DNA of 64,000 bases, taken from a virus (lineage: Duplodnaviria > Heunggongvirae > Uroviricota > Caudoviricetes). The notes beneath the pieces are model-generated. The model was given only the letters and a program-made list of their open reading frames with translations, was not told the DNA's origin and ran no database searches. Both the position numbers and the translations under genes were made by a program. Location of the stretch: the IMG/VR virus record IMGVR_UViG_3300042914_002848. One strand, 5' to 3'. How positions within the stretch are numbered: the stretch's first letter is position 1; the number at the start of each line of letters is the position of its first letter. Shown piece after piece: positions 4,932 to 53,170 of the stretch.

Positions 4932-5702
4932 TTATATCATTCTTGATAATGCTTTTACAGACCAGTCGTTGGTGGATGAAGATGCATATAATATAATATT
5001 TGAACCACTTAATGCAACTGAAAGGTTTATTTCTGCGGTATTTCCTATATCGTTTGTTGATACATCGTTCCATTCCACCGAAGTTCCGTTCCAAACCGAA
5101 AATACAGTGCCCGCTCTTGCATTAGTTGATTTATTCAATACATAATCAAAGAATGCTGCCCGGTATGAACCCGTAGATACACTCATCACAGTTCTGATCG
5201 AACCACTATCTATATCGGTATTTTGTCCATAAGTGTATAGTGAGCCTGTTGATATTTGAAAATTACCTTCAACATGCAATGATGCGGATGGGGTAGTTGT
5301 GCCTATGCCTACATTACCGTTATCTAAAACTACTAAACTTGCACTTGCATTGCTGTTTTCAACTCTAAGTGCTGTCGTTGCGGATGTTGCTCCGCTGCCT
5401 CTGACCTGTAAACGCGATGTTGGGGAAGTTGTCCCAATACCTATGTTTCCACTACTTTCATATATTGATGATGTGGTGATTGTTGTACCACCACTCCAAC
5501 GAGTTATGTAATTTGCTGTTCCACTTCCACCAATAAGTGAACCACCACTTACTAACGAAGAGGTTGAAAAATAAGTGAATGTTCCTGATGTGGTGTTATA
5601 ACCTATTACATTAGGTTGAGATACATTTGGTAGTGAACTTGCGGTTATGTTTAGGACATGAACTGCACTACCAGATTGTAATATCTTTTTCCATGAAGGC
5701 AT
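4932..5702 (-). CDS. Tail fibre-associated protein
   Basis: GNIGIGTTSPTSRLQV and GNVGIGTTTPSASLHV repeats; shares a module with the 1..3482 fibre. Confidence 0.7.
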   Translation of the reverse strand: MPSWKKILQSGSAVHVLNITASSLPNVSQPNVIGYNTTSGTFTYFSTSSLVSGGSLIGGSGTANYITRWSGGTTITTSSIYESSGNIGIGTTSPTSRLQVRGSGATSATTALRVENSNASASLVVLDNGNVGIGTTTPSASLHVEGNFQISTGSLYTYGQNTDIDSGSIRTVMSVSTGSYRAAFFDYVLNKSTNARAGTVFSVWNGTSVEWNDVSTNDIGNTAEINLSVALSGSNIILYASSSTNDWSVKALSRMI

Positions 5703-40941: not shown

Positions 40942-40955
40942 ATAGGAGGAATTAA

Positions 40956-41025
40956 CTTACAAAGTAAAGATAATACAGAAATAGGGAATATCCAAACTTT
41001 CAATATTAAATTTGCGTTAAATCTT
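40956..41025 (-). promoter_or_regulatory. Early promoter module
   Basis: TTTGG-N19-TATCTTTACTTTGTAA with upstream TTAA-N7-TTAA. Confidence 0.7.
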
Positions 41026-41193
41026 TTAACCAAGATTTGTTCTTTCTTGAATAAGATTTAGGTGACTTGACCACCTGTTCTGTCATTTTTTTACTGATAT
41101 GGTGTGCAGCCTCTCCTGAACTCCAATTGCCGTTAAAATCAAGCAATTTCCTGTCTCTTTTGGTTTTACTCATATCAATAACTATTTAATACC

Positions 41194-41292
41194 CAAAGAT
41201 AAGTATAAAAGAGCAAAAATCCAAACTTTTGAGATTAAAATTCCATTAAAGTTATCCACATTCGTGTGGAAAAGTGTCCAATTTATTGGACA
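41194..41292 (-). promoter_or_regulatory. Early promoter module with DnaA box and palindrome
   Basis: TATCTTTG; TTATCCACA 41252; TGTCCAATTTATTGGACA 41275. Confidence 0.7.
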
Positions 41293-41299
41293 GTTGGTT

Positions 41300-41728
41300 T
41301 TAATTCGTAAATAGGGTATTATCCCTGTCAATCGGGTCAATTTTAAACCCATATTTTTTCTTAACCCGCTCTGAAATAGGAATCGGGTTTCCATCCTCAT
41401 CAATTCTCACAAAGGTAATATAGGTAGATACAACGGTGGTTTGGTTGCCTGTATATACATTATGCGCTCTTGCTTCAATGTATAGTTTAACCGATGTATT
41501 TCCAATATGATTTACACTACCATATACCTTTAATAGTTGCCCTTCTTTTGCGGGCTTCTTAAATAGACACTCATCTATTTTAATAGTTACTACACGGGGG
41601 GTATCACATACCTGCATTGCGTACGCAGCTGCGGAAGCATCAATCCACGCCAATGCTTTTCCTCCGAAAAGATTTCCGTGAAAACCTAAATCTGATTTTT
41701 TGACGGGATATGTATTAATCAGTTCCAT
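41300..41728 (-). CDS. Acyl-CoA thioesterase (hotdog fold, YciA-like)
   Basis: DLGFHGNLFGGKALAWID, VVT, FKKPAKEG, GNTS, TFVRIDEDGNP. Confidence 0.88.
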   Translation of the reverse strand: MELINTYPVKKSDLGFHGNLFGGKALAWIDASAAAYAMQVCDTPRVVTIKIDECLFKKPAKEGQLLKVYGSVNHIGNTSVKLYIEARAHNVYTGNQTTVVSTYITFVRIDEDGNPIPISERVKKKYGFKIDPIDRDNTLFTN

Positions 41729-41918
41729 CAGTAATTTCTTCAAATGGTATAGATACTATTTCTCTACAAAAAAATAACAAACCATCCTTTTTAAAGGTAT
41801 GGCTACATTCCCAATATTGTTTTATGAAATCTACATTTAGATTTGGTTCTTCTTTCATTGTACGATAGACTTGAAACATACCATCGTTTATATAAATAAC
41901 CTGTCCTAAATAACTCAT
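41715..41918 (-). CDS. Hypothetical protein
   Basis: 67-aa ORF. Confidence 0.55.
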   Translation of the reverse strand: MSYLGQVIYINDGMFQVYRTMKEEPNLNVDFIKQYWECSHTFKKDGLLFFCREIVSIPFEEITDGTD

Positions 41919-41932
41919 AATTTATTTTGTTG

Positions 41933-42003
41933 AGCGGGTAGATGGAATCGAACCACCGTCATAGGCTTGGAAAGCGAATGTAATACCATTATACGATACC
42001 CGC
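41933..42003 (-). tRNA. tRNA-Gly(TCC), anticodon stem with two mismatches
   Basis: GCGGGTA...TTCGC TTTCCAA GCCTA...GGTGG TTCGATT CCATC TACCCGC. Confidence 0.8.
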
Positions 42004-42007
42004 AAGT

Positions 42008-42026
42008 ATCCCCACTAAGGGGGATG
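42008..42026 (-). terminator. Hairpin after lipoprotein gene (possible terminator or processing stem)
   Basis: ATCCCC...GGGGAT inverted repeat. Confidence 0.35.
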
Positions 42027-42041
42027 TAATCTGAAAAACTA

Positions 42042-42209
42042 TTATTGAGCAGCTGCTGTGCTATCTACAACAGGATACAACTCCTCAGTAGAATCTACAA
42101 CAGCAGAATCAACTGGTTCGGCAACCAATTCAGTTTGTTCAGCGTTGTTGGTACAAGCCGTAAATGATACAGCCATAACTACCATTGCGATAAAAAAGAT
42201 GTTTTTCAT
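42042..42209 (-). CDS. Small lipoprotein (55 aa)
   Basis: Hand translation MKNIFFIAMVVMAVSFTA|CTNNAEQ...VDSAVVDSTEELYPVVDSTAAAQ; signal peptide and lipobox; below ORF-track cutoff. Confidence 0.8.
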   Translation of the reverse strand: MKNIFFIAMVVMAVSFTACTNNAEQTELVAEPVDSAVVDSTEELYPVVDSTAAAQ

Positions 42210-42285
42210 AATTAATTTGTTTTAAATTTTACACAATATACAAAAGAAATTTCATATTTCCAAATTTTTTCTTAAATAAATACAA

Positions 42286-42669
42286 TTATTTTTTTGATAA
42301 AATATCATTAAGCATGTTTATTTCAGTTTTAAACATTTCTTCTTCCATTTTCCCACGCTCTTTCTCAATTGCTTTTTGTACTAACCCAATCAATTCATTT
42401 GATAAGAATGAACTAATGGTAAACTCAAATGTATAGTAGTGGTTGGAAACTTTAACCATATTATTTTGCAATATCAAAGTGTATTGTTTATCATCTGTCT
42501 GAACATAGTATCTACCCGATGGTGTCATCAAGTAGTGGGTTTTTGGATTTGACATCAATCGGATTAAAACCCTCTTTGTTAAAATCTCTCTTTCGGTATA
42601 GGGCTCGTGTCTAACCAGCCCCTGCCTAAACCAAACCTGCAATTTTTTAAATTTGTATTTTATATTCAT
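42286..42669 (-). CDS. Hypothetical protein
   Basis: 127-aa ORF. Confidence 0.65.
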   Translation of the reverse strand: MNIKYKFKKLQVWFRQGLVRHEPYTEREILTKRVLIRLMSNPKTHYLMTPSGRYYVQTDDKQYTLILQNNMVKVSNHYYTFEFTISSFLSNELIGLVQKAIEKERGKMEEEMFKTEINMLNDILSKK

Positions 42670-42686
42670 TATTTTTTATTTTTTTG

Positions 42687-42759
42687 TACGGTTAATAGGG
42701 TTCGAACCTATACGGAAACTTTAGAAGAGTTTAATGCTATCCAATTACATCATAACCGC
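42687..42759 (-). tRNA. tRNA-Arg(TCT)
   Basis: Cloverleaf; AAACT CTTCTAA AGTTT; TTCGAAC T-loop. Confidence 0.88.
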
Positions 42760-42777
42760 AAATTATATAAATATACT

Positions 42778-42803
42778 ACTCTATCCAACTGAGCTACGGG
42801 CGC
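42778..42803 (-). pseudogene. 5' fragment of a tRNA (Arg-like), acceptor 5' strand and D-arm only
   Basis: GCGCCCGTAGCTCAGTTGGATAGAGT followed by AT-rich non-tRNA sequence. Confidence 0.7.
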
Positions 42804-42817
42804 ATATTCATTTTTTG

Positions 42818-42902
42818 TACCTCGGACCGGAATCGAACCGGTACAGCTTCATCAGCTACAGGATTTTAAGTCCTGCGTGGCTACCTATTTCACCACCGAG
42901 GC
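42818..42902 (-). tRNA. tRNA-Leu(TAA)
   Basis: CAGGA CTTAAAA TCCTG, long variable arm. Confidence 0.92.
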
Positions 42903-42909
42903 ATTATCA

Positions 42910-43104
42910 TTATTTATCAACTACTTTTTTCCTCACCGCTTCAGATACACTAAACAGTTCACTAAATTGGTCTTTCTTCATTTTTTTTGTTTCACAAAAT
43001 AACTCAATAGCATCTTCTAAAGAACTTGCTTTTGTTTTACTAAGTGCTTCTTTTGTAGTGTCCGATTTAAAATAAAAGTAGTATTCTTTCATGTTCTTTC
43101 CCAT
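42910..43104 (-). CDS. Hypothetical protein
   Basis: 64-aa ORF. Confidence 0.55.
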   Translation of the reverse strand: MGKNMKEYYFYFKSDTTKEALSKTKASSLEDAIELFCETKKMKKDQFSELFSVSEAVRKKVVDK

Positions 43105-43133
43105 TTAACTTTACACAATATACAAATAATTAT

Positions 43134-43589
43134 TTAATTATCCAAACTTTTTGTGTAATAAAAAACACCTACCCCCGCTTCCTCAAACATTTTGATACTT
43201 CGTTCAGCGCTTTCTTCCCATTTGGGCCCTTTAGCTCCACTATTTGTTCTACATATTATTTCAGATATGCCGGAATTTATTATATTACGAGCACAATCCG
43301 CACAAGGTATTCCACAAGTCATATACATTTTAGTATTTAGTGTAGATACTCCAATTCTTGCACAATTTATTATAGAATTAGTTTCCGCATGTGAGAACCA
43401 AAAGTATTTCTCTGGTCTTTCTTGTCTTTCATTAACATTATCATTAATCCCTCGTGGAAATGAGTTATAGCCGGTAGAAACAATTTCGTTATCTTTACCA
43501 ACTATAACCACTCCGATTTGAGTTTTTTCATCTTTAGATTTTAACTTAACTTGTTCGGCTATGTTAATAAAATATTCATCCCATTTCAT
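43134..43589 (-). CDS. dCMP deaminase
   Basis: STGYNSFPRG, HAETN, PCADC. Confidence 0.92.
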   Translation of the reverse strand: MKWDEYFINIAEQVKLKSKDEKTQIGVVIVGKDNEIVSTGYNSFPRGINDNVNERQERPEKYFWFSHAETNSIINCARIGVSTLNTKMYMTCGIPCADCARNIINSGISEIICRTNSGAKGPKWEESAERSIKMFEEAGVGVFYYTKSLDN

Positions 43590-43634
43590 ATTTTATATAT
43601 TTGATAGTAATTATAAGTAAAGCGTCTATTTTCA

Positions 43635-43916
43635 TCAAAATTTAAAAGATAGTTTGTATTCCTTATCACCTTCAGTTTTGAAATGAATATTTTTACCCTT
43701 CCAATTTACAATTTCGGTTATCTTATCAGAGCAAAAAGAATAGAATGAACCCATACCATCTGAATACTCAAAATCAAGAACAAGCATATTACCAACATGC
43801 GGTCCACCATCTTCCCAATTTTTGATTCCACCTCGTAAATCTCTTTGGGCCCATTTAACGGATTCGGCTTCCCAAATCCGTCCGCTGTTTACATCTTCTA
43901 ATTTATACATTTTCAT
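43635..43916 (-). CDS. Hypothetical protein
   Basis: 93-aa ORF. Confidence 0.6.
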   Translation of the reverse strand: MKMYKLEDVNSGRIWEAESVKWAQRDLRGGIKNWEDGGPHVGNMLVLDFEYSDGMGSFYSFCSDKITEIVNWKGKNIHFKTEGDKEYKLSFKF

Positions 43917-44334
43917 TTATATTAATTGCCATCATTCTTTTAATATGCCTATCTCCCTCAAAATCGGTTTCTAAAAAAGTGTTAAGGATATCAATTGCAT
44001 CATCAATACAAAGAAACCTTGCGGGTAAACAAATAATATTTGCATTATTATGTGCCCTTGCTAATCGTGCTATATCAACATCCCAACAAAGTGCCGCACG
44101 AATACCTGGCCATTTGTTTGCTGTCATACACACCCCATTACCGCTACCGCATATAAGAATACCAAATTGCGATTTAAAGTTTGAACACATTTTGTGTGCG
44201 TAGTCCGGGTAATCAACGGACTCGGGAGTATTTGTTCCCAAGTCCGTTAATTCCATTCCACACTTATCCATATACTCAATCAGTTGAGTTTTTAATTCCC
44301 ATCCTGCGTGGTCTGATGCGATTAGTATTGACAT
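43903..44334 (-). CDS. rpiB: Ribose-5-phosphate isomerase B
   Basis: ASDHAG, SVDYPDYA, GILICGSGNG, ANK, RAHNNAN, FEGDRH. Confidence 0.95.
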   Translation of the reverse strand: MSILIASDHAGWELKTQLIEYMDKCGMELTDLGTNTPESVDYPDYAHKMCSNFKSQFGILICGSGNGVCMTANKWPGIRAALCWDVDIARLARAHNNANIICLPARFLCIDDAIDILNTFLETDFEGDRHIKRMMAININENV

Positions 44335-44347
44335 TTTTTACCTTATC

Positions 44348-45916
44348 CTAATTTTTTATAATACGCGTTGTGTAATTTCCCGATGGTGTTGTGATATTAA
44401 CAAAAAGAATACCACTTACATTATCTACGATAGTAACCATTGAATGGTTTTCATTGTATGTAATATCCGATTGAACATTAGAACCCATAATATTAAATAC
44501 TGAAATATTTGTAATTCGTTCACCGCATTCTACCATAAATTCATTTTTAATTGGATTGGGATAAACATTCATTCGGTTTGAAATCTCCATATAACGAACC
44601 GATGTCCTAATTGTATCTGGGTTGAAATTAGACCAACCACTCGTCCAGTCAGATTGACCAAACGCACCACGATGGGTAACGGGCGTAAAGAAATTATTTG
44701 AAATTCGGGGATTTGAAAAAGAAGCACCTGTTAATAGAATACTATTTTGTTGTGGTAATAGCTGTGGGTTTGTTAGGCTATTATAACCCGAAGATAATCC
44801 GATTTGGGATGTACTATCAAATATCTCATTTCCTCTCAAAGTATCACCAAAATAATTCAACATCCCAGCCCAAGTATTCGTACCTTGTGTTTGTTCAAAC
44901 TTATTAGTCATATTAGCAAATACCACTCTTTCAATTTGGAGTGAATCATTAGTCGCATTTAATTGAGCCGATGAACCATCAATATGCAATCCAGTCGGAT
45001 ATCCCATAAAAAGGGAATTGTAGACCGATGTACGGGTGTTCCTACGAAGATGTAACGCCCTACGATAAAGAGAAGCAGGTCCACCATTTTCTTTTGGGCC
45101 GATGATAGTTACATTAGAAAATATCGGAGCAGTTTGTGGTGTGTTTGAAGTCCCTGTTCCATCGTTATCGGATTCAAATCCGTTTGATTGAGATTGGTCT
45201 GCAATCTGCGGGTCACGCATTGAAAGAGCAAATTGAACTTTTCCTCTATAACCAAAATCAGTATCAAAATCATCATCCCATCCACGATGGGCAATCAAGT
45301 ACTTACAATTGACTGTACCACCAAACCATTCATAGGAATCATCACCAGAATAGGATACTTGAACATTCTCAACCACAGTCTTACTACCAACCCCACCAAA
45401 TGTCAATCCATTGATTTCACTATTGGGTTGATATGCTATGCCGGGAAATTCAATGCGGACATATCTAAATACACCCGAACTATCTTCATCATCAGTTCCA
45501 CCATAAGTAGCATCTTGTCCTAAGAGCCCACCTTCAATAATACCAACTCCACCAGGAATGTTTGTTGTAGCGTTTCCTAATATTACAACCCCACCCCAAT
45601 CACCATAAGTACGCTGCCCTACAGTTTGATTGGATGTAAAGATAATTGGTTGAGCCGCCGTTCCGTTTGCATAGATGCGGCCGTTTTTTGTAATAATAAG
45701 CGTTCCCTTTGATGCTTTATCACCTCTGATAATTGTACCAGGTTCAATTGTTAGTGTTGCGCCATTCTTTACAAACCGATTACCTTCTAATAAATAAATT
45801 GTTCCACTATTCCAAGTGGTGTTTGTTGTAATATCTGTTCGGATGGTATCAACTGTAGTTTGCGCTTGTGCGAAACTAAACATGCTCAAAAGAGCGAGAA
45901 TAAAACTTTTTTTCAT
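44348..45916 (-). CDS. Secreted beta-helix protein with type IX secretion (T9SS type A) C-terminal sorting domain
   Basis: Signal peptide MKKSFILALL..AQA; LTIEPGT, DSSGVFRYVRIEF, DDSYEWFGG, DDDFDTD; C-terminal VYPNP...VFNIMG...GILFV...RIIKN. Confidence 0.85.
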   Translation of the reverse strand: MKKSFILALLSMFSFAQAQTTVDTIRTDITTNTTWNSGTIYLLEGNRFVKNGATLTIEPGTIIRGDKASKGTLIITKNGRIYANGTAAQPIIFTSNQTVGQRTYGDWGGVVILGNATTNIPGGVGIIEGGLLGQDATYGGTDDEDSSGVFRYVRIEFPGIAYQPNSEINGLTFGGVGSKTVVENVQVSYSGDDSYEWFGGTVNCKYLIAHRGWDDDFDTDFGYRGKVQFALSMRDPQIADQSQSNGFESDNDGTGTSNTPQTAPIFSNVTIIGPKENGGPASLYRRALHLRRNTRTSVYNSLFMGYPTGLHIDGSSAQLNATNDSLQIERVVFANMTNKFEQTQGTNTWAGMLNYFGDTLRGNEIFDSTSQIGLSSGYNSLTNPQLLPQQNSILLTGASFSNPRISNNFFTPVTHRGAFGQSDWTSGWSNFNPDTIRTSVRYMEISNRMNVYPNPIKNEFMVECGERITNISVFNIMGSNVQSDITYNENHSMVTIVDNVSGILFVNITTPSGNYTTRIIKN

Positions 45917-45967
45917 AGATTGTTTTTTTAAATTGTTTAATTGTTTATATAAATAAATATTGATTTT

Positions 45968-46306
45968 TTACTTCCAAAATATTTGTATCAGTATAATAAC
46001 TCCTGAAAGGATTAAACATACCATTGTTTTTGTGGTTAGGTTTTCTCCAAAAACTAATTGTGAAAGTATAGCAAAAACCACTACCCCAATACCAAACCCA
46101 ATAAGACGAGATGGCCAAAGTAATCCACCATAATGAGTGATGATTTGACGAACCGATTCCATATACATCATTGATATAGGAATACCCATCAATACAATAA
46201 CCCAATAGTTATCTTTGAACCATTGGTATTTTAACTGACCCTGGAGTTGATAGAAAGTAAGTATCTGCGCCAAAAGCATCAGTAACATTCCGATTAAAAG
46301 TGCCAT
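45968..46306 (-). CDS. Small four-TM membrane protein (DMT/SMR-like size)
   Basis: 112 aa, four hydrophobic segments, FGE motif. Confidence 0.6.
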   Translation of the reverse strand: MALLIGMLLMLLAQILTFYQLQGQLKYQWFKDNYWVIVLMGIPISMMYMESVRQIITHYGGLLWPSRLIGFGIGVVVFAILSQLVFGENLTTKTMVCLILSGVIILIQIFWK

Positions 46307-46325
46307 TTTTTATTTTTTAAGTTAG

Positions 46326-46399
46326 TAGGGGAAGCGGGACTCGAACCCACAACCTCGTGCTCCCAAAGCACGTAATCTAACCAATTGATATATTCCCCT
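46326..46399 (-). tRNA. tRNA-Pro(TGG)
   Basis: CGTGC TTTGGGA GCACG. Confidence 0.9.
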
Positions 46400-46402
46400 A
46401 TG

Positions 46403-46610
46403 TTTCCCCACCCTGAGATTTGGGGTGAGTAGTCATTCTGGTTTTTTCCTATTGATAAAACCTACAGGGCATCCCCTATTAAAACAGTCACACTACGAAG
46501 GAGGAGCTGTGAGTGGCACCTTTAACCCTAAGAACCGGCATTCCGCTGTCCGATTTAAGCGAGCCCATTGTTTAAGTCTTGAACTAAAGACTCTGAGTAT
46601 CTCTTACTCA
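46403..46610 (-). ncRNA. Unknown structured RNA (~210 nt) between tRNA-Asp and tRNA-Pro
   Basis: GC-enriched with several hairpins (TGAGTA/TACTCA, AGTCT/AGACT, TCAC/GTGA, CACCC/GGGTG); no credible minus-strand ORF. Confidence 0.5.
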
Positions 46611-46613
46611 TTG

Positions 46614-46684
46614 CGGTTCATAGGGGTTATGCTCCCCTGCCTCGGCAGTGACAGTGCCGTATTCTACTATTATACTAATGAACC
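46614..46684 (-). tRNA. tRNA-Asp(GTC) with non-canonical T-loop (AGCATAA)
   Basis: GGTTCAT/ATGAACC acceptor, CGGCA CTGTCAC TGCCG, AGGGG AGCATAA CCCCT. Confidence 0.75.
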
Positions 46685-46688
46685 ATTG

Positions 46689-46761
46689 AGCGGCAAACTG
46701 GATTCGAACCAGCGACCCTAACCTTGGCAAGGTTATGCTCTACCAACTGAGCTACTGCCGC
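46689..46761 (-). tRNA. tRNA-Gly(GCC)
   Basis: TAACC TTGCCAA GGTTA. Confidence 0.93.
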
Positions 46762-46767
46762 AAAGTG

Positions 46768-46840
46768 AGCTTCTTATCGGATTCGAACCAATGACCATCC
46801 GCTTACAAGGCGGGAGCTCTACCAACTGAGCTAAAGAAGC
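46768..46840 (-). tRNA. tRNA-Thr(TGT)
   Basis: CCGC CTTGTAA GCGG. Confidence 0.92.
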
Positions 46841-46846
46841 ATTTTG

Positions 46847-46920
46847 TGGACCGTACCGGAGTCGAACCGATGACCTTCTGAATGCAAATCAGACGTTCTA
46901 GCCAACTGAACTAACAGCCC
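46847..46920 (-). tRNA. tRNA-Ala(TGC)
   Basis: TCTGA TTTGCAT TCAGA. Confidence 0.9.
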
Positions 46921-46925
46921 TTTTG

Positions 46926-46999
46926 TAGCGGGTGAGGGATTCGAACCCCCGATTCCTGGCTTATGAGACCTGGCGGATAGACCACTTCCATAACCCGCA
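46926..46999 (-). tRNA. tRNA-Met(CAT), initiator-like (1:72 mismatch)
   Basis: CTCATAA loop, unpaired first acceptor position; anticodon stem lacks the three G-C pairs of canonical fMet. Confidence 0.75.
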
Positions 47000-47012
47000 A
47001 TATATTTCAATT

Positions 47013-47435
47013 TTAAAAAATCCTTTTACCTTCAGGATTGAAATGCATAAATTGATGTGTTTCCATATCCGATTGCCATTTGTAGTGAACAACAAGCCCG
47101 TTATTATTTTTATAATGATTATCACCTAAATTGTGGTGGGTTTCTATTATTCTTGTTAGCATTTCCCTTGCCACATCATCGGATTTAGTTGATTGGGCAC
47201 ACATAATATTTTCAGTTCCACCCCACTTAAAAAAGTACATAGTCATTAAATCAAATTTAGGATGGACTGTATATATAACCCAATAATCAGATTGATTTAA
47301 TCTTTCCCAATTTGTTGTACCAAATTCAAGACGATTTCTTTCTTTGATTTCAGTAACAGTAAATCCAACCATTGGCTTTTGTGCAAACGCAGTTGAACTA
47401 AGTAATACAAATAGGGTAATAAGTAGTTTTTTCAT
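47013..47435 (-). CDS. Secreted hypothetical protein
   Basis: Signal peptide MKKLLITLFVLLSSTAFA|Q. Confidence 0.7.
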   Translation of the reverse strand: MKKLLITLFVLLSSTAFAQKPMVGFTVTEIKERNRLEFGTTNWERLNQSDYWVIYTVHPKFDLMTMYFFKWGGTENIMCAQSTKSDDVAREMLTRIIETHHNLGDNHYKNNNGLVVHYKWQSDMETHQFMHFNPEGKRIF

Positions 47436-47450
47436 AGTTTTTGTTTTTTG

Positions 47451-47524
47451 TACTCCGTACGGGACTCGAACCCGTAAGCTTTCCCGTGAAAGGGGAATGT
47501 CCTAACCAATTAGACGAACGGAGC
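47451..47524 (-). tRNA. tRNA-Glu(TTC)
   Basis: TTCCC CTTTCAC GGGAA. Confidence 0.92.
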
Positions 47525-47534
47525 GTATTGATTG

Positions 47535-47606
47535 CGTCCTGAGTAGGAGTCGAACCTACGACCAACGGATTAACAGTCCGTCGCTCTACCTCTGAGCTAT
47601 CAAGAC
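47535..47606 (-). tRNA. tRNA-Asn(GTT)
   Basis: ACGGA CTGTTAA TCCGT. Confidence 0.92.
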
Positions 47607-47611
47607 AATTG

Positions 47612-47694
47612 TACCGAAGGCGAGACTCGAACTCGCAATGCTATAAAGCGCTGGTTTCTAAAACCAGTGTGACTGCCAATTCCACCACTTCGGT
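47612..47694 (-). tRNA. tRNA-Leu(TAG)
   Basis: CTGGT TTTAGAA ACCAG, variable arm. Confidence 0.9.
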
Positions 47695-47738
47695 ATAAAT
47701 ATACAAAATAAATTTTAATTATCCAAATTTATTTTTTG

Positions 47739-47825
47739 CGGAAGATATTGGATTTGAACCAATGAACCAGTTACCCGATTAACACCTTAGCAGGGTGCCG
47801 CTTTAGACCACTCAGCCAATCTTCC
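47739..47825 (-). tRNA. tRNA-Ser(GCT)
   Basis: GCACC CTGCTAA GGTGT, long variable arm. Confidence 0.9.
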
Positions 47826-47827
47826 TT

Positions 47828-47904
47828 TGGGGCGACCGATGGGAATCGAACCCACCCGCACTAGAACCACAATCTAGCGCTCTACCAACTGAGCTACAGC
47901 CGCC
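47828..47904 (-). tRNA. tRNA-His(GTG)
   Basis: CTAGA TTGTGGT TCTAG, G-1, encoded CCA. Confidence 0.92.
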
Positions 47905-47906
47905 AT

Positions 47907-48356
47907 TTAACGGCAGTGATAATCTGCCGCTTTTGTAGCAATTTGAATATCAGGTTTGACATTCACTTTGTATCCCAACGATAAGGCCCAACCACGAGTT
48001 GCTCCTATAAGTTTGTGGCTAGGTGCAATTTCGTCTTGGTTATAGTCCATATCAATTTCAACATTTATGTTGATTTGTTGGGTAAACCATTCTGCCACTT
48101 CCAATGTACGAGCGCATTCATCAAATAATCTTGTGAACATATCACGCACCAATGGAACTTTTTCTTTTGTGTAAATATAGTGAACACCTCTGATACCAAA
48201 ACGATATGCTATTGCAGTTACATACGATGTTTCCAATCCTACATTTTGAGAATCAGTACCAATATGAACTTTTAGATTAGGATACCGTTTCATTATATCC
48301 AAGGTATGTTCAACAACATCTACCACTCTGTTGTCTACTGATTTAAACCTTTTCAT
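47907..48356 (-). CDS. RNase H-like YkuK (DUF458) family protein
   Basis: VHIGTDSQ, RLFDE...LEVA, EIDMDYN, VKPD..IATKAAD. Confidence 0.8.
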   Translation of the reverse strand: MKRFKSVDNRVVDVVEHTLDIMKRYPNLKVHIGTDSQNVGLETSYVTAIAYRFGIRGVHYIYTKEKVPLVRDMFTRLFDECARTLEVAEWFTQQININVEIDMDYNQDEIAPSHKLIGATRGWALSLGYKVNVKPDIQIATKAADYHCR

Positions 48357-48374
48357 CTTCTTTCTTTTTTTTAG

Positions 48375-48448
48375 TAGCGAAAAGCAGAATCGAACTGCTA
48401 ACCTCAGGATTATGAGACCTGCGCTCTAACCAATTGAGCTATTTCGCC
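48375..48448 (-). tRNA. tRNA-Met(CAT), elongator-like
   Basis: CAGG..CTCATAA..CCTG. Confidence 0.85.
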
Positions 48449-48455
48449 ATTCACG

Positions 48456-48528
48456 CACGGGTGGAGAGACTCGAACTCCCAGCCTATGATTTTGGAGATT
48501 ATTGCTCTGCCAATTGAGCTACACCCGT
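48456..48528 (-). tRNA. tRNA-Trp(CCA)
   Basis: CTCCAAA loop. Confidence 0.88.
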
Positions 48529-48536
48529 ATTTTTTG

Positions 48537-48607
48537 AGGTACTGATTGGAATTGAACCAATATAAAGGCTTTTGCAGAGCCCCACCTTGCCAGTCGGACA
48601 CAGTACC
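48537..48607 (-). tRNA. tRNA-Cys(GCA)
   Basis: GGGCT CTGCAAA AGCCT, U73. Confidence 0.88.
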
Positions 48608-48613
48608 AAATTG

Positions 48614-48685
48614 TAGCTCCTAAACGATTCGAACGTTTAACACTTCGTCCGTAGCGAAGCAGTTTATCCATTAGCCTAAGGAGCC
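48614..48685 (-). tRNA. tRNA-Arg(ACG)
   Basis: CTTCG CTACGGA CGAAG. Confidence 0.88.
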
Positions 48686-48690
48686 TTGTG

Positions 48691-48764
48691 TTGGAATAGC
48701 CGGATTCGAACCAGCGACCTTTTGAATATCAGTCAAATGCTCTAACCAACTGAGCTATATTCCA
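48691..48764 (-). tRNA. tRNA-Ile(GAT)
   Basis: TTTGA CTGATAT TCAAA. Confidence 0.92.
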
Positions 48765-48769
48765 ATGTG

Positions 48770-48851
48770 TGCCTGCAGAAGGACTCGAACCTTCGGACTC
48801 AAACGAGAACTGATTTACAGTCAGTTGCAATTGCCGCTATGCGATACAGGC
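48770..48851 (-). tRNA. tRNA-Tyr(GTA)
   Basis: ACTGA CTGTAAA TCAGT, variable arm. Confidence 0.92.
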
Positions 48852-48860
48852 ATATTTGTG

Positions 48861-48934
48861 TGGTGAATGGTTGGATTCGAACCAACGACGCGAGGCTCTT
48901 CAGGCCTCCGCTCTACCAACTGAGCTACATCACC
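48861..48934 (-). tRNA. tRNA-Phe(GAA), one-nt bulge in acceptor stem
   Basis: GAGGC CTGAAGA GCCTC; GGTGATG vs CATTCACC. Confidence 0.88.
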
Positions 48935-48939
48935 AAATG

Positions 48940-49074
48940 AACACAATGTTGGAGTACCCATCTCGCTCCAATCTTAACTGCTTATTCGTAGTTTTACGAG
49001 GCCTCGGCAGAGGGTGCTAACTCCATATAGAGACCTGCGCTGGTCTTTGTTCTATACTTCTGTTCATTGTGTTT
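48940..49074 (-). ncRNA. Unknown structured RNA (~135 nt), closed multibranch fold
   Basis: Terminal stem AACACAATG/CATTGTGTT; internal AGACC/GGTCT, TGGAGT/ACTCCA, TCGTA/TACGA. Confidence 0.6.
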
Positions 49075-49076
49075 TG

Positions 49077-49208
49077 TAGTCAGGACAGGATTCGAACCTG
49101 TATGTGGTAATCCTTCCAGATATTTCTCACTTACGTTTTTGCCGTATTAGCGTCTACCATATCCAGCACATACTATTACTCTTTGTGCTTTCATTCCGCC
49201 ACCTGACT
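49077..49208 (-). ncRNA. tRNA-scaffold RNA copy 1 (acceptor stem and T-arm, expanded interior)
   Basis: AGTCAGG...ACAGGTTCGAATCCTGTCCTGACT; no canonical anticodon arm. Confidence 0.75.
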
Positions 49209-49213
49209 ATATT

Positions 49214-49288
49214 GTCCACTCTGTTGGATTCGAACCAACTTACTCGCTCTGTGTTCGGATACCGCAGTACCAGGCGACATAGAGGTCA
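49214..49288 (-). ncRNA. tRNA-like element lacking canonical D/anticodon arms
   Basis: GTTGG TTCGAAT CCAAC T-arm, partial acceptor CTCT/AGAG, internal TCGC/GCGA stem. Confidence 0.5.
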
Positions 49289-49319
49289 AAGTGTTTTACC
49301 ACATAACACTAAGAGTGAG

Positions 49320-49394
49320 TACACCTTGCTAGATTCGAACTAGCGACCCTTTGCTTGTAAAACAAATGCTCTGAACCAACTGAGCTAAAGGTGT
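49320..49394 (-). tRNA. tRNA-Val(TAC)
   Basis: TTTGT TTTACAA GCAAA. Confidence 0.9.
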
Positions 49395-49399
49395 AAATG

Positions 49400-49472
49400 T
49401 GACCCCGAACGGAATCGAACCGTTACTCCCCTGGTTAAAAGCCAGGTGCTTTACCAATTAAGCTACGAAGTC
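49400..49472 (-). tRNA. tRNA-Lys(TTT)
   Basis: CCTGG CTTTTAA CCAGG. Confidence 0.9.
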
Positions 49473-49477
49473 TTTTG

Positions 49478-49551
49478 TACTCCCGACAGGACTTGAACCT
49501 GTAACCTCGATGGTATAAGCATCTTGCGCTAACCAATTGCGCCACGAGAGC
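49478..49551 (-). tRNA. tRNA-Ile(TAT)
   Basis: GATG CTTATAC CATC; complete cloverleaf. Confidence 0.85.
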
Positions 49552-49560
49552 ATAATTATG

Positions 49561-49646
49561 AGGAAGAGGTGAGATTCGAACTCACGGAGCTTTAACACCC
49601 TCCGGTTTTCAAGACCGGTGCAATAGACCAACTCTGCCACCCTTCC
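49561..49646 (-). tRNA. tRNA-Ser(TGA)
   Basis: CCGGT CTTGAAA ACCGG, long variable arm. Confidence 0.92.
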
Positions 49647-49652
49647 ATTATG

Positions 49653-49780
49653 TAGTCAGGACAGGATTCGAACCTGTACGCAGGGCTTTCTAAGTCTTTG
49701 CCTCCTGCATCCCTCTTGAGTGTCCTTCTGTATTGCTACATTTCCTCCGTTGGATTGCGTCTACATTCCGCCACCTGACT
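49653..49780 (-). ncRNA. tRNA-scaffold RNA copy 2
   Basis: AGTCAGGTGGCGGAATGTAGACGC...ACAGGTTCGAATCCTGTCCTGACT. Confidence 0.75.
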
Positions 49781-49786
49781 ATATTT

Positions 49787-49938
49787 AAAGTAACCCAACT
49801 CAGAAGGGTATTTGTTACATTATCACAGCTTTTGCAATGTACTCTGGTTAATTATTCCGTCTGTACCCAACCGCTTTATGTTGGCTTATAGCTGGCTATT
49901 TTAATGCAACTCACAACTTTATTTGTTGGAATTACTTT
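49787..49938 (-). ncRNA. Unknown structured RNA (~150 nt)
   Basis: Terminal stem AAAGTAA(TT)CCAAC/GTTGG(G)TTACTTT, internal CCAAC/GTTGG and TACATT/AATGTA. Confidence 0.45.
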
Positions 49939-49941
49939 TTG

Positions 49942-50063
49942 CAGTCAGGACAGGATTCGAACCTGTGACATTGCAACCCTTATACTTCTCGCGTCCAAAT
50001 GATTTTGAATCGTGGTGTTTTTGGGATGTGATAAACCTCTTTCACATTACGCAATACCTGACT
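49942..50063 (-). ncRNA. tRNA-scaffold RNA copy 3
   Basis: AGTCAGG...ACAGGTTCGAATCCTGTCCTGACT with an unrelated structured interior. Confidence 0.75.
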
Positions 50064-50068
50064 ATATG

Positions 50069-50139
50069 TTGCCCCCCAAGGATTCGAACCTCGATAAACA
50101 GAATCAAAGTCTGCTGTCCTGCCGTTAGACGAGGGGGCA
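50069..50139 (-). tRNA. tRNA-Gln(TTG)
   Basis: GCAGA CTTTGAT TCTGT. Confidence 0.9.
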
Positions 50140-50152
50140 GTGGTTTTCCAAG

Positions 50153-50164
50153 ATGTCAAAGAAC
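50153..50164 (-). promoter_or_regulatory. rrn-type boxA antitermination element
   Basis: GTTCTTTGACAT about 14 nt before the first tRNA; resembles boxA GCTCTTTAACA. Confidence 0.65.
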
Positions 50165-50200
50165 GATGGTTTTTTAGTGAGAACCAACTCAAGAACTAAA

Positions 50201-50256
50201 CAAATATACGAATAAATTTTTAAATTTCCAAGCTTTCAATATTAAATTTGCGTTAA
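50201..50256 (-). promoter_or_regulatory. Bacteroidota-type promoter of the tRNA array
   Basis: TTGG-N19-TATATTTG plus the upstream TTAA-N7-TTAA motif shared with early promoters. Confidence 0.7.
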
Positions 50257-50260
50257 TAAT

Positions 50261-50290
50261 AAAAAAGCCCGAATTTTGTGGTTCGGGCTT
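50261..50290 (-). terminator. Intrinsic terminator (attenuator) downstream of the leader peptide
   Basis: AAGCCCGAA-N8-TTCGGGCTT followed by a T-tract. Confidence 0.85.
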
Positions 50291-50314
50291 GCTCTTTTAG
50301 ATTTGTATTCTTTA

Positions 50315-50416
50315 TTAGATACACATCCACGGAACAACCCCATAGGTATAATCTACCTTAATGGCTGTAAACCAATGCTGATTTGAGAGATTACGTGGGT
50401 GTGTTATTGAATGCAT
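50315..50416 (-). CDS. 33-aa leader peptide MHSITHPRNLSNQHWFTAIKVDYTYGVVPWMCI (putative attenuator uORF)
   Basis: Hand translation; A-rich upstream region, tandem TAA TAA stops, 19 of 20 amino acids, 3' end overlaps the antiterminator arm. Confidence 0.75.
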   Translation of the reverse strand: MHSITHPRNLSNQHWFTAIKVDYTYGVVPWMCI

Positions 50417-50484
50417 GATATTTTTGTTTTTTCCGAATATAAATATACAAAAAATAAATAAAAACTATTAATTTAATTTTTTTG

Positions 50485-50558
50485 TGTTCCTGGTAGGGTT
50501 CGAACCTACGACCACCTGATTATGAGTCAGACGCTCTAACCTGCTGAGCTACGGGAAC
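50485..50558 (-). tRNA. tRNA with CAT anticodon (Ile2/lysidine-type or Met)
   Basis: CTGA CTCATAA TCAG. Confidence 0.85.
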
Positions 50559-50565
50559 GATTTTT

Positions 50566-50685
50566 TTAGATTAATGATGTTAAAATATTACCAACAATAG
50601 CAAAGGCCCAAGCTATAATTACTAAAGTTGAAAAACCTACTGCTAAATAGTAAAATACATCATCCGGTGTGGTTTTTAGTTTCAT
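50566..50685 (-). CDS. Small membrane peptide (39 aa)
   Basis: MKLKTTPDDVFYYLAVGFSTLVIIAWAFAIVGNILTSLI. Confidence 0.5.
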   Translation of the reverse strand: MKLKTTPDDVFYYLAVGFSTLVIIAWAFAIVGNILTSLI

Positions 50686-50700
50686 ACCTATTACTTTTTA

Positions 50701-50916
50701 TTAGCGATATAATGTAACAATACTACCAAACTCTTCATCAAAGATTTTAAGTAAGTTTTCATAATCACCACTCATCATCCTATTGGTAATTTCTTTTGAA
50801 TCCTTACCAAGTTGTTTGGCCAAATTTCGTGCAGTTCCTATAAGAAAGAATGCGTTTCCTTGAGGACCAGTCAAATCAATTTCTAAATTGCGGTTGGTTG
50901 GTTTTTTCTTTATCAT
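50701..50916 (-). CDS. Hypothetical phage protein
   Basis: IDLTGPQGNAFFLIG...MMSGDYENLL. Confidence 0.7.
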   Translation of the reverse strand: MIKKKPTNRNLEIDLTGPQGNAFFLIGTARNLAKQLGKDSKEITNRMMSGDYENLLKIFDEEFGSIVTLYR

Positions 50917-50921
50917 AATTT

Positions 50922-51248
50922 TTATTTTAAATAATTTGGTCCGTATGGGGTATAATTACAACCTTCAATAACATTTCCACGACTAATTGCGGCGGGTTGA
51001 CGGTGGGTTGCTGCTTTCAATAAATCACCTCTAAGATAAGGTTTACCTTTTAATACACCATTATTACGGGCGATAAATCCCCACGCACAATTGTTTACTG
51101 TGATTTTGTGAAATTTACTTCCGGTGTTTAACTTTATATCAACTACCGCCCTACCGAATTGAGCATTGTAATACTCATTCAGTTGGGATGTTAATACATT
51201 CATAAAATCCTCAATAGTGGAGCAGGGGGGGCAATTCAATTGTTTCAT
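50922..51248 (-). CDS. Hypothetical phage protein
   Basis: GDLLKAA...PA...RGN motif seen in small early phage proteins. Confidence 0.65.
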   Translation of the reverse strand: MKQLNCPPCSTIEDFMNVLTSQLNEYYNAQFGRAVVDIKLNTGSKFHKITVNNCAWGFIARNNGVLKGKPYLRGDLLKAATHRQPAAISRGNVIEGCNYTPYGPNYLK

Positions 51249-51268
51249 ATAAAATTTAGGTTAAATCT

Positions 51269-51439
51269 TTAATTTATAAAATCTGATGTGTTGACAATAA
51301 AATCTTCTTCTTTGCCTGTATGAAAATTCTTAACAACTACAATGAATGAGTTTTCATTGAATTTACCGTGAACCATACCTTCACGAATAACTCCATTATC
51401 ATTGAATTTACGAATTTCTGAAATCTTTATTTTGTTCAT
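51269..51439 (-). CDS. Small hypothetical protein (56 aa)
   Basis: Hand translation MNKIKISEIRKF...TSDFIN. Confidence 0.5.
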   Translation of the reverse strand: MNKIKISEIRKFNDNGVIREGMVHGKFNENSFIVVVKNFHTGKEEDFIVNTSDFIN

Positions 51440-51447
51440 AATATTAA

Positions 51448-52005
51448 TTAAGCTGTGATACCACTCATATATGGTAATAACTCAACCTTAGCTTTTTCAG
51501 CTATCTTAGCATCTACATACTTTACAGTATCGTTAAAGGTTCTCCCACTACGGACCTCATTCACAACCCACTCTACAGTACCAAAGCGGGGTTGGTTTTC
51601 AGTAAATGCGTATTTAACACCGGCCTCCAACTCCAATCCATTATCGGAAATAGTACCACTATTTTCATAACTTTCATACATATCAATCATTCCATTGAAT
51701 TTACCATACTCCCACATATCCACAAAATCAGAAATCGTTTTGAAGGATTGAGAGTCAATTGGAGCACCTAATTTGGTGGATACATACACACGGAGGGAGT
51801 TACCACCCGAAAAAGAATCGGATGCCACACGGCACAGCACATTTGGGAAATTTCGTTTAACAAACTGCTTCACCAAAAGACCGGCGGTGGGGGGATTCAC
51901 ATACACATACTTACTACCCTTATTAGGGCCGTAGTTTTTAGTACGAATTGCTTTCAACGGGAGTTCGTAAGAAGAACCGTGGATACTAACTGAAAATTTT
52001 GTCAT
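51448..52005 (-). CDS. Hypothetical protein, LPD29-like domain
   Basis: VKQFVKRNFPNVLCRVASDSFSGGNSLRV...FNGMIDMYE. Confidence 0.5.
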   Translation of the reverse strand: MTKFSVSIHGSSYELPLKAIRTKNYGPNKGSKYVYVNPPTAGLLVKQFVKRNFPNVLCRVASDSFSGGNSLRVYVSTKLGAPIDSQSFKTISDFVDMWEYGKFNGMIDMYESYENSGTISDNGLELEAGVKYAFTENQPRFGTVEWVVNEVRSGRTFNDTVKYVDAKIAEKAKVELLPYMSGITA

Positions 52006-52027
52006 AATATAGGGGGTTTAATTTTTT

Positions 52028-52144
52028 TTAGGATGCTAATTCGGTATCAAATCTTTGAACAGGCTCTTTAAGCAGGTTTACCCTACAAGGTTCATCAACG
52101 ATGAAAAGGTAAACAAGCAATAAACTCATTAGGTTCGTTTTCAT
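52028..52144 (-). CDS. Small hypothetical peptide
   Basis: Likely start at 52144, directly after the repeated promoter/leader. Confidence 0.35.
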   Translation of the reverse strand: MKTNLMSLLLVYLFIVDEPCRVNLLKEPVQRFDTELAS

Positions 52145-52156
52145 ATCTCTCATTAA

Positions 52157-52280
52157 CTTACAAAGTAAAGATACTACAGAAAACCTATATTTCCAAGCTT
52201 TCAATATTAAATTATCGTTAAATTTATCCACATTTTGCTCTAAATCCACGAAATAGTGTCCACTAAATTGGACACTATTT
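52157..52280 (-). promoter_or_regulatory. Early promoter module with DnaA box and palindrome
   Basis: TTATCCACA 52224; GTGTCCA-N6-TGGACAC 52256. Confidence 0.7.
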
Positions 52281-52291
52281 TATATGGGTGG

Positions 52292-52540
52292 TTAATTCCA
52301 CCTTTTTTCGTGCCGTTCCTTTAATTCATTTACCTCTGATTTAACTTCCGACCAATATGCATATCCTCTATCTGCCCCCATATCACCCAACACCTCATTA
52401 CAGGTTATTAATGCGCATTGGATTGCTTCACTCCACCTGCTACTACAACAATTAATTCCTGTGTTTAGGCTACCATTGTTGGGGAATGAGTAATAAAATT
52501 TATCCACCAAAAATTTTGCTTTTTCTTTTGCAGTCATCAT
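52292..52540 (-). CDS. Hypothetical protein
   Basis: MTAKEKAKFLVDKF...AIQCALITCNEVL...YWSEVKSEV. Confidence 0.65.
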   Translation of the reverse strand: MMTAKEKAKFLVDKFYYSFPNNGSLNTGINCCSSRWSEAIQCALITCNEVLGDMGADRGYAYWSEVKSEVNELKERHEKRWN

Positions 52541-52674
52541 AGCATTTACAATTTTTTATCATTATTCTTTTTATACAAATGCGTTGTAATGATGAATATC
52601 GCAAAAATAACCATCATTATAAATGATAGTATTGTAAAATCTATTTTAATCATAACTTTATTTTTTTATTAATT

Positions 52675-52980
52675 TTATGATATCATCCAATTAATATCCT
52701 GTTTGTATGTAATACTTTCATACCCATAATACTCATTAATTGTAAATTCGGTATCAACGGGTATTAAACATACTGATAAACCGGATATACCTCCAAGATG
52801 TATGCCTGGATAAGTTTTTTCTACATATGATATGGTGGCATCGTAATTACCTGATTCAACCAACTCAATTAATTTTGGGTCAAAAACTGCGTTTGGTGGT
52901 GCTCCATAGGTATAAAACCCTGAACCATACCCTTCAGATATTAAGACCTTGGTCATACCATCAACAACTACTTTTTCCAT
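52675..52980 (-). CDS. Hypothetical phage protein
   Basis: VLISEGYGSGF...FDPKLIELVE...FTINEYYGYESI. Confidence 0.65.
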   Translation of the reverse strand: MEKVVVDGMTKVLISEGYGSGFYTYGAPPNAVFDPKLIELVESGNYDATISYVEKTYPGIHLGGISGLSVCLIPVDTEFTINEYYGYESITYKQDINWMIS

Positions 52981-53170
52981 AATGTATATTATTTAATTTA
53001 AGCCAAAATAATTATCACCATCCGTAACACCATTATAATATTCTAAAAGAATAAGTTCTGCTGTTTCCTCGTCAACCCATTGGTGATATTGTGTAAATTC
53101 ACCAACCCAAAATTTACCATATTGATAAGGTAAATCCCATACTGATAATTTTGTATTTTTCATATCTTAA

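Follow-up and report, generated by a model that had tools for sequence, protein, structure and literature searches.

A putative leader-peptide attenuator at the head of a phage tRNA array

How phages regulate their tRNA genes is largely unknown. The genes are mostly regarded as constitutive passengers, there to correct for codon usage or to make up for tRNAs lost through host defence. Here, we examined a locus of a lake-water phage in which a short ORF written in nearly all amino acids, followed by an intrinsic terminator, stands between a promoter and an array of tRNA genes, and asked what this arrangement does. The window, by which we mean the whole 64,000-nt stretch of DNA that was analysed, belongs to a 105-kb IMG/VR virus record; the minus strand carries all of its genes, it has Bacteroidota-type promoters, and one of its ORFs has a C-terminal sorting domain for type IX secretion. 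From its structure, its conservation and the composition of related leaders, we consider it likely that the element, standing at the head of the array, acts as a ribosome-mediated (leader-peptide) attenuator of transcription.

The leader region and the tRNA array

Read along the minus strand, a hydrophobic ORF of 39 codons is followed by tRNA-Met, a -7-type promoter box (P1), the 33-codon leader ORF, a 24-nt spacer, the terminator, a second promoter (P2), a boxA-like leader and finally tRNA-Gln with the remainder of the array (Table 1). The hydrophobic ORF (MKLK..., one predicted membrane helix; 50566-50685, minus strand) lies immediately before tRNA-Met, is conserved and is also found in several relatives (L011, L253, L254, L258). 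Separately, a gene for an Rnl1-type RNA ligase (PF09511; 54251-55294, minus strand) lies 4 kb upstream of the tRNA array and may relate to tRNA repair.

Table 1. Coordinates of features at the putative attenuator locus (positions in the window; structures are as predicted by folding)
Feature	Position	Strand	Remarks
tRNA-Met(CAT)	50484..50558	-	upstream of leader ORF, not part of the attenuated unit
Promoter P1, -7-type box GTATATTTA	50440..50448	-	23 nt upstream of leader ATG
Leader ORF, 33 codons + stop	50315..50416	-	second TAA at 50314-50312 (TAA TAA)
Region 1 (codons 5-8)	50394..50404	-	pairs with region 2 (50331-50321) in full-length minimum-energy fold
Region 2, antiterminator 5' strand (last 8 ORF codons)	50319..50341	-	truncated-transcript fold; ribosome-mask model
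Region 3, antiterminator 3' strand (spacer + terminator 5' arm)	50285..50308	-	truncated-transcript fold
Intrinsic terminator (9-bp stem, 8-nt loop, U-tract)	50259..50290	-	-13.4 kcal/mol
Promoter P2	50201..50256	-	upstream module TTAACGCAAATTTAATATTGAAAGCTTGGAAA and -7 box GTATATTTG at 50209-50201; between attenuator and array
boxA-like element GTTCTTTGACAT	50153..50164	-	leader of tRNA-Gln; only exact copy in window
tRNA array, 23 genes, all 20 amino acids	46325..50139	-	22 ARAGORN tRNAs + tRNA-Asp (Rfam only)

The P1 box belongs to a motif, GTATATTTR, that occurs 11 times in the window where 4.1 occurrences are expected (none of 100 shuffles reached 11), nine of them on the coding strand, and a P1-like box is found 8-26 nt before the leader ATG in other phages. 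The assignment of this promoter to a "late" class by the first-pass annotation of the locus remains untested. Contigs of RNA libraries from two studies have ends near P1, at 50439 and 50433, which is a weak hint only. Metatranscriptome contigs from three studies extend from about 50433-50454 across the terminator as far as the end of tRNA-Gln; by bridging the terminator they are compatible with read-through, again as a weak hint, and DNA carry-over is not excluded. These metatranscriptomes were available as assembled contigs only, giving no strand, end or level information, and the parts they leave uncovered are uninformative.

As the first-pass annotation had it, the leader ORF ends in a double stop and uses 19 of the 20 amino acids, Glu alone being missing; its other sequence details likewise proved correct. 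It contains two Trp, three His, two Met and one Cys codon and all three Ile codons (ATA, ATT and ATC), without a run of any single codon. A-rich sequence 5' of the ATG provides a translatable context; translation itself is inferred and not demonstrated. The amino-acid diversity to which that annotation had drawn attention is indeed unusual but not extreme: 19 amino acids in 33 codons has P = 0.004 against a proteome null, P = 0.008-0.024 against other small ORFs of the same genome and P = 0.019 when the null keeps the base composition of the leader. Anticodons of the window's array can read 28 of the 33 leader codons.

The downstream array agrees with the count of 23 tRNAs given previously, one of which, tRNA-Asp(GTC) (46614-46684, minus strand), was missed by ARAGORN and found as an Rfam match of 47.8 bits; it is required for coverage of all 20 amino acids. 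Its first gene is tRNA-Gln (50139-50068, minus strand), and three additional tRNAs lie at 42902-41932. Two ORFs and RNAs built on a tRNA scaffold break the array. The ORFs, both on the minus strand, are an RNase H-like ORF (PF04308; 47907-48356) and one of 140 aa without a Pfam match (47013-47435). The RNAs, three in number and of about 125 nt each (about 50063-49942, 49780-49653 and 49208-49077, minus strand), have a tRNA-like acceptor stem and T-arm (AGTCAGG...CAGGTTCGAATCCTGTCCTGACT) around unrelated interiors and were called by neither ARAGORN nor Rfam; similar RNAs are present in the relatives L013 (about 1260-1363) and L017 (about 3776-3897).

Alternative RNA structures in the leader transcript

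The terminator has the arms AAGCCCGAA and TTCGGGCTT around its 8-nt loop, followed by a T-run, and begins 24 nt after the leader stop, in keeping with the earlier proposal of an intrinsic terminator shortly after the ORF. In the fold of the full leader, the terminator is accompanied by a hairpin closing the ORF, in which 50404-50394 pairs with 50331-50321. When the transcript is cut before the terminator 3' arm, the minimum-energy fold becomes the antiterminator, including both alternative pairings that had been proposed from the sequence (50341-50332 with 50294-50285, and 50329-50319 with 50308-50298). Its helices are formed by GGG 50341-50339 with CCC 50287-50285, UUGUUC 50337-50332 with GAGCAA 50294-50289, UGGAU 50329-50325 with AUCUA 50302-50298, and UGUAU 50323-50319 with AUACA 50308-50304. 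The comparison with trp and his attenuators made in the first-pass annotation is thereby upheld at the level of geometry: ORF, 1:2 hairpin, 2:3 antiterminator and 3:4 terminator are all present.

The antiterminator segment is more stable than expected from its composition, with z = -4.65 against 400 dinucleotide shuffles, none of which reached its value, and z = -4.9 to -5.2 against matched terminator contexts. As the matched control, we used 77 distinct IMG/VR contexts with identical terminator arms (AAGCCCGAA...TTCGGGCTTTTTT); the median z-score of all 77 is -0.4, and members of the family described below take the six strongest values (-4.1 to -6.2). Among the clean terminators of this genome, only that of the window has a strong upstream alternative (z = -5.2; others -0.7 to +1.0). 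For the 1:2 hairpin, the fold of the leader alone has z = -2.70 (family mean -2.14, with 14 of 29 leaders below -2). The probability that the terminator 5' arm is paired upstream did not discriminate as a statistic, with shuffles averaging about 0.5 because the terminator arm is GC-rich, and minimum-free-energy z-scores with matched controls were used in its place. No match to the Rfam leader families (Trp, His, Leu, Thr and others) was found in 50140-50483, even at E <= 1, and none to the T-box covariance model in 40000-53000.

To model the effect of translation, a 28-nt ribosome footprint was moved codon by codon along the leader. With the A site at codons 1-21 the antiterminator is predicted to pre-form (P >= 0.91), and at codons 22-33 it is lost (P <= 0.06), which reproduces the earlier caveat that stalls after about codon 22 would themselves mask the antiterminator. 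The productive stall window, codons 1-21, holds 15 amino-acid types; Asp, Tyr, Gly and Cys are confined to codons 22-33. In the full-length RNA at equilibrium the terminator wins at every ribosome position (P = 1.00), so that any switch must be kinetic, as in trp, and equilibrium folding is uninformative about it. Without a ribosome, the truncated transcript also favours the antiterminator at equilibrium; on this model, the termination of untranslated transcripts would depend on a kinetic trap by the 1:2 pairing, which is likewise untested.

Related loci and the composition of their leaders

Related loci were fetched via the neighbouring RNase H-like gene, the terminator and the junction of the boxA-like element with tRNA-Gln. 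In every relative, a short ATG-started ORF and a terminator head the tRNA array. The complete module of promoter, short ORF, antiterminator and terminator heads the tRNA arrays of at least nine related lineages and of unrelated large phages (WIN, which is the window, with L254; L058; L011/L017; L250; L248; L024; L038; L139; L141; L152; L157; and further L173; L190; L207; L213; L221; L064/L266/L267/L268). The comparison that the first-pass annotation had suggested, with relatives searched for a conserved ORF and covarying antiterminator pairs before their tRNA arrays, thus came out in its favour. The ORF is intact in every copy found, starts with ATG and has 21-51 codons in each lineage. In close clades, homologous peptides occupy the same position and indels come in multiples of three; these, and the bias of the L011-L017 substitutions to the third codon position (five of seven), are signs of coding.

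Terminators differ between lineages, and in each the 3' end of the ORF complements the terminator 5' arm of its own phage, for example CUCGAGGUUU with AAACCUCGAG in L250 and CCGAGGUU with AACCUCGG in L024. Distant lineages have unrelated sequence and the same design, namely a 7-18-nt complement of the terminator arm and an inner hairpin around the stop codon. At the level of single pairs, a U-A pair in L011 is a C-G pair in L017, by a synonymous GTT>GTC change in the ORF and an A>G change in the spacer, and a C-G pair of the window's antiterminator corresponds to U-A in L011. These compensatory changes were read from single-sequence folds, because the antiterminator strands came out misaligned when clades A, B and C were aligned with MAFFT. 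An exception is L252, for which the minimum-energy fold contains no antiterminator.

Comparison of the window with L058 shows nucleotide-level conservation in the 3' part of the ORF, in the spacer and in the terminator, and region 3, which is non-coding, is nevertheless identical in the window, L254 and L058. The window and its nearest relative, L254, differ in codons 5-14 at 9 of 10 residues (17 of 30 nt), the rest of the leader and the terminator being identical; this hypervariable block (50404-50375; 1595-1624 in L254) is still able to pair with region 2. Across the family, the distance from stop to terminator is mostly 21-31 nt. In nine loci (L250, L248, L152, L268, L252, L139, L190, L207 and L221), the first tRNA begins only 6-32 nt after the U-tract, which leaves no room for a promoter, so the tRNAs there would be made only by read-through. 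In L074, an unrelated large phage, a tRNA-like gene interrupted by about 70 nt of inserted sequence, probably an intron, lies just after a leader-terminator module (about 5265-5400 of the reverse complement).

Nucleotide searches missed the leader because its conservation resides in peptide and structure: blastn of the region against GenBank phages gave tRNA matches only, an exact 26-mer from the leader ORF had no match in IMG/VR, and blastn against the first set of related loci did not detect the leader. Within clades, dN/dS was not informative, there being too few substitutions.

Since the window's array covers all 20 amino acids, a match between leader and tRNA pool is not informative on the window alone, and the family had to supply it. 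A scan of 270 loci for ORF-terminator-tRNA modules gave about 40 leaders. In two unrelated large phages, found only because they have the window's terminator arms, leaders rich in Leu, Gln, Phe, Val and Arg stand before clusters of just those tRNAs. One 195-kb phage has four leader modules: a leader with seven consecutive Gln codons (MKTVININVQQQQQQQ...; L268 5026-5106) precedes four tRNA-Gln genes, and leaders rich in Asn/Thr/Ile/Lys/Cys, in Pro/Met/Gly/Tyr/Asp and in Leu/Phe/Val/Arg each precede the corresponding tRNAs. Similarly, the leader TTINNTICNKK lies ahead of Asn/Thr/Lys/Ile/Met/Cys tRNAs, and TAVATTTPVTGGRPVG ahead of Pro/Ala/Thr/Gly/Val tRNAs. In a permutation test on 21 non-redundant pairs of leader and partial cluster, with cluster boundaries set by our own rule (gaps <= 1000 nt, or the next leader), the in-set excess was 2.29 against 0.03 +/- 0.41 in permuted pairs, a value reached in none of 20,000 permutations.

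The match is found only in the middle of the leaders (43% versus 24% expected, P = 9e-16); the first 5 and last 8 leader codons show no enrichment for the amino acids of the downstream tRNAs. This mid-leader position, upstream of the antiterminator strand, is the one expected for regulatory codons. A preference for the codons of the isoacceptors encoded downstream was not significant (63% versus 54% for Leu/Ser/Arg, P = 0.14). Leader diversity increases with the breadth of the cluster (Spearman rho 0.56, P = 0.025), and the window's relatives, which were not picked for diversity, also score high: their leaders of 27-40 residues contain 17-19 different ones (Fisher P = 4e-4, with the null matched to their own base composition). 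The window's leader of 19 amino acids before an array for 20 is the broad end of this composition rule. The earlier idea that the leader samples the decoding pool accordingly gains support from the composition match of the family, but "pan-amino-acid" overstated it, only 15 types lying where a stall is predicted to be productive.

Proposed mechanism, rival readings and known systems

In the mechanism that we propose, transcripts from P1 would carry the 33-codon ORF, and their region 2 could pair with either region 1 or region 3. A fast ribosome that has reached the stop codon would cover region 2, allowing the terminator (3:4) to form and transcription to end at 50259. A ribosome that lags or stalls in codons 1-21 would let 2:3 pair before the 3' arm is made, and RNA polymerase would continue into tRNA-Gln and the array. 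Slow decoding would then mean more read-through, and hence negative feedback on tRNA supply; because the leader uses nearly all amino acids and the array serves all 20, this response would be expected at every slowing of decoding. That stalling leads to read-through in vivo, and that the signal is the supply of aminoacyl-tRNA, are inferences for which there are no experimental data. With less assurance, we lean towards the broader reading that demand governs the tRNA genes of phages with Bacteroidota-type hosts, with each leader spelled in the amino acids of the tRNAs behind it and the window's leader of 19 amino acids serving as a general gauge of decoding capacity, so that the pool is topped up only when that of the host fails. 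Such failure would arise from codon-usage mismatch, starvation or a tRNA-cleaving defence; a link to anticodon-nuclease defence, which the first-pass annotation had raised, is speculation.

The array has several inputs, of which the attenuator is only one, governing only P1-started transcripts, since P2 with the boxA-like leader and internal promoters also drive tRNA genes. The second promoter below the terminator had been anticipated, and its -7 box belongs to a repeated promoter family; its upstream module has nine copies in the genome. The promoter module TTAACGMWAAATTTAAYATWGAAAGYTTGGAA is found at 50256-50221 and at 8 other places in the genome; TGTGGATAA and a palindrome, TGTCCA...TGGACA, stand before several of its copies, and several P2 copies follow hairpins. 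Further -7-type boxes GTATATTTA at 47696-47704 and 42768-42776 (minus strand) lie directly before tRNA-Leu(TAG) and tRNA-Arg(TCT) and are likely internal promoters of the tRNA region. Through P2 and these two promoters, much tRNA expression may bypass the attenuator. Despite P2, the leader ORF and helices have stayed intact in all copies found, which speaks against decay.

Following P2, the boxA-like element, as GTTCTTTGACAT(N)TTGGAAAA, stands 13 nt before tRNA-Gln and is seen in loci L139-L247. The same 21-mer precedes tRNAs and unidentified RNAs, one of which starts GTGTAAAGTCGAATAGTG, in more than 114 IMG/VR contigs. Set against the boxA consensus sequences UGCUCUUUAACA of E. coli and AUGAUCUUUGAAA of B. 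subtilis (PMC13753749), it has the core UCUUUGA in common with the latter and matches the former at 9 of 12 positions, as counted by hand. It could act as a Nus-type antitermination site in stable-RNA operons of phages, a role for which there are no NusB/S10 binding data.

The rival that survives best retains the leader attenuator and changes its signal. The leader would sense general translation capacity or coupling (ribosome availability, initiation rate or a Trp nascent-peptide arrest), not aminoacyl-tRNA, and in this clade might be largely redundant with P2. Several features sit comfortably with it: the absence of a single-codon run, a start codon inside region 1 in L058, L011 and L254, Trp in all close relatives, the non-significant isoacceptor preference, and the bypass of the attenuator by P2 and the internal promoters. 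We nevertheless think it unlikely. Leader amino acids track the cluster tRNAs across the family, a match that a pure coupling sensor does not need, and the distance from Trp to stop varies (13-30 codons by our own count), unlike that of known arrest peptides.

Slightly less probable still is that the ORF is a small independent micro-protein gene (27-51 aa) with a promoter of its own and an ordinary terminator, the latter also shielding P2 from transcription that arrives from upstream, the hairpins serving mRNA stability or being incidental. Close relatives share a Trp-centred motif (C..SP..WF, and DY), which hints, from comparison of the peptides, at some constraint on the peptide itself; five of the seven substitutions between L011 and L017 fall at codon position 3; and a full promoter does follow the terminator in the window. 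A micro-protein would, however, not explain why leader composition matches the tRNAs in unrelated phages, and only in mid-ORF, why seven Gln codons precede four tRNA-Gln genes, why the ORF 3' end covaries with its own terminator arm or why tRNAs begin 6-32 nt past the terminator in many lineages, and it fits poorly with the replacement of nearly all residues of codons 5-14 between the window and L254 alongside identical RNA elements.

It is, in our view, very improbable that the element is a non-coding small RNA under a promoter and terminator of its own, the ORF being incidental: nucleotide-level conservation of the ORF 3' part, spacer and terminator between the window and L058 and the folding of the whole leader region (z = -3.74) would suit it, against which stand the ATG-started ORF of 21-51 codons kept in every lineage with in-frame indels, an amino-acid match to downstream tRNAs that has no reading at the RNA level, and the lack of an Rfam family match. 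A chance ORF at a plain terminator-promoter junction, conceivable in that P2 is repeated with copies after hairpins, is rejected in view of the homologous ORFs and covarying antiterminators of the relatives.

How, then, does the proposed attenuator compare with known systems? Multivalent leader-peptide attenuators are known from ilvGMEDA and ilvBN (Ile/Leu/Val) and thr (Thr/Ile), alongside the trp and his leaders. Like these, the phage element has a short ORF, translated in the known leaders and presumed to be so here, 1:2, 2:3 and 3:4 helices and an intrinsic terminator; its regulatory codons would precede the antiterminator strand, termination would be favoured by a ribosome at the stop, and the terminator is more stable than the antiterminator, hence a kinetic choice. 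Unlike them, it would control tRNA genes and not biosynthetic enzymes, so that its product feeds back on decoding; it is phage-borne, and the window's leader has 19 amino acids, no codon run and no Rfam leader match. In the attenuator of E. coli pheST (phenylalanyl-tRNA synthetase), a leader with a run of Phe codons senses one amino acid. There too, leader-peptide attenuation acts on the translation apparatus and not on amino-acid synthesis, but pheST is a cellular gene, and its attenuator controls a synthetase and reads a single amino acid through the Phe run. T-box riboswitches likewise use a terminator/antiterminator switch to report the state of the tRNA pool; they bind uncharged tRNA directly and need no ORF, whereas the sensor of the phage element would be the ribosome. 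As in boxA/Nus antitermination of rRNA operons (PMC13753749), a boxA-like sequence, GTTCTTTGACAT, lies in the leader of a stable-RNA operon, but in the phage it is separate, downstream of the attenuator and not a component of the switch.

A full-text literature search found no account of attenuators before tRNA genes, and to our knowledge the logic that links decoding to supply by attenuation is on record only from amino-acid biosynthesis and from a single synthetase operon. If the attenuator before tRNA genes is real, it provides a direct feedback from decoding speed to tRNA supply, with the testable rule that leader composition predicts cluster content. The family also forms a natural series from single-amino-acid to near-universal leaders, useful for studying how ribosome stalling is read out, and its leader modules might serve as compact sensors of tRNA availability. 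Set beside the known systems, the mechanism, leader-peptide attenuation, is classical; new are the target, namely tRNA genes, the feedback that this implies, and a leader without codon runs.
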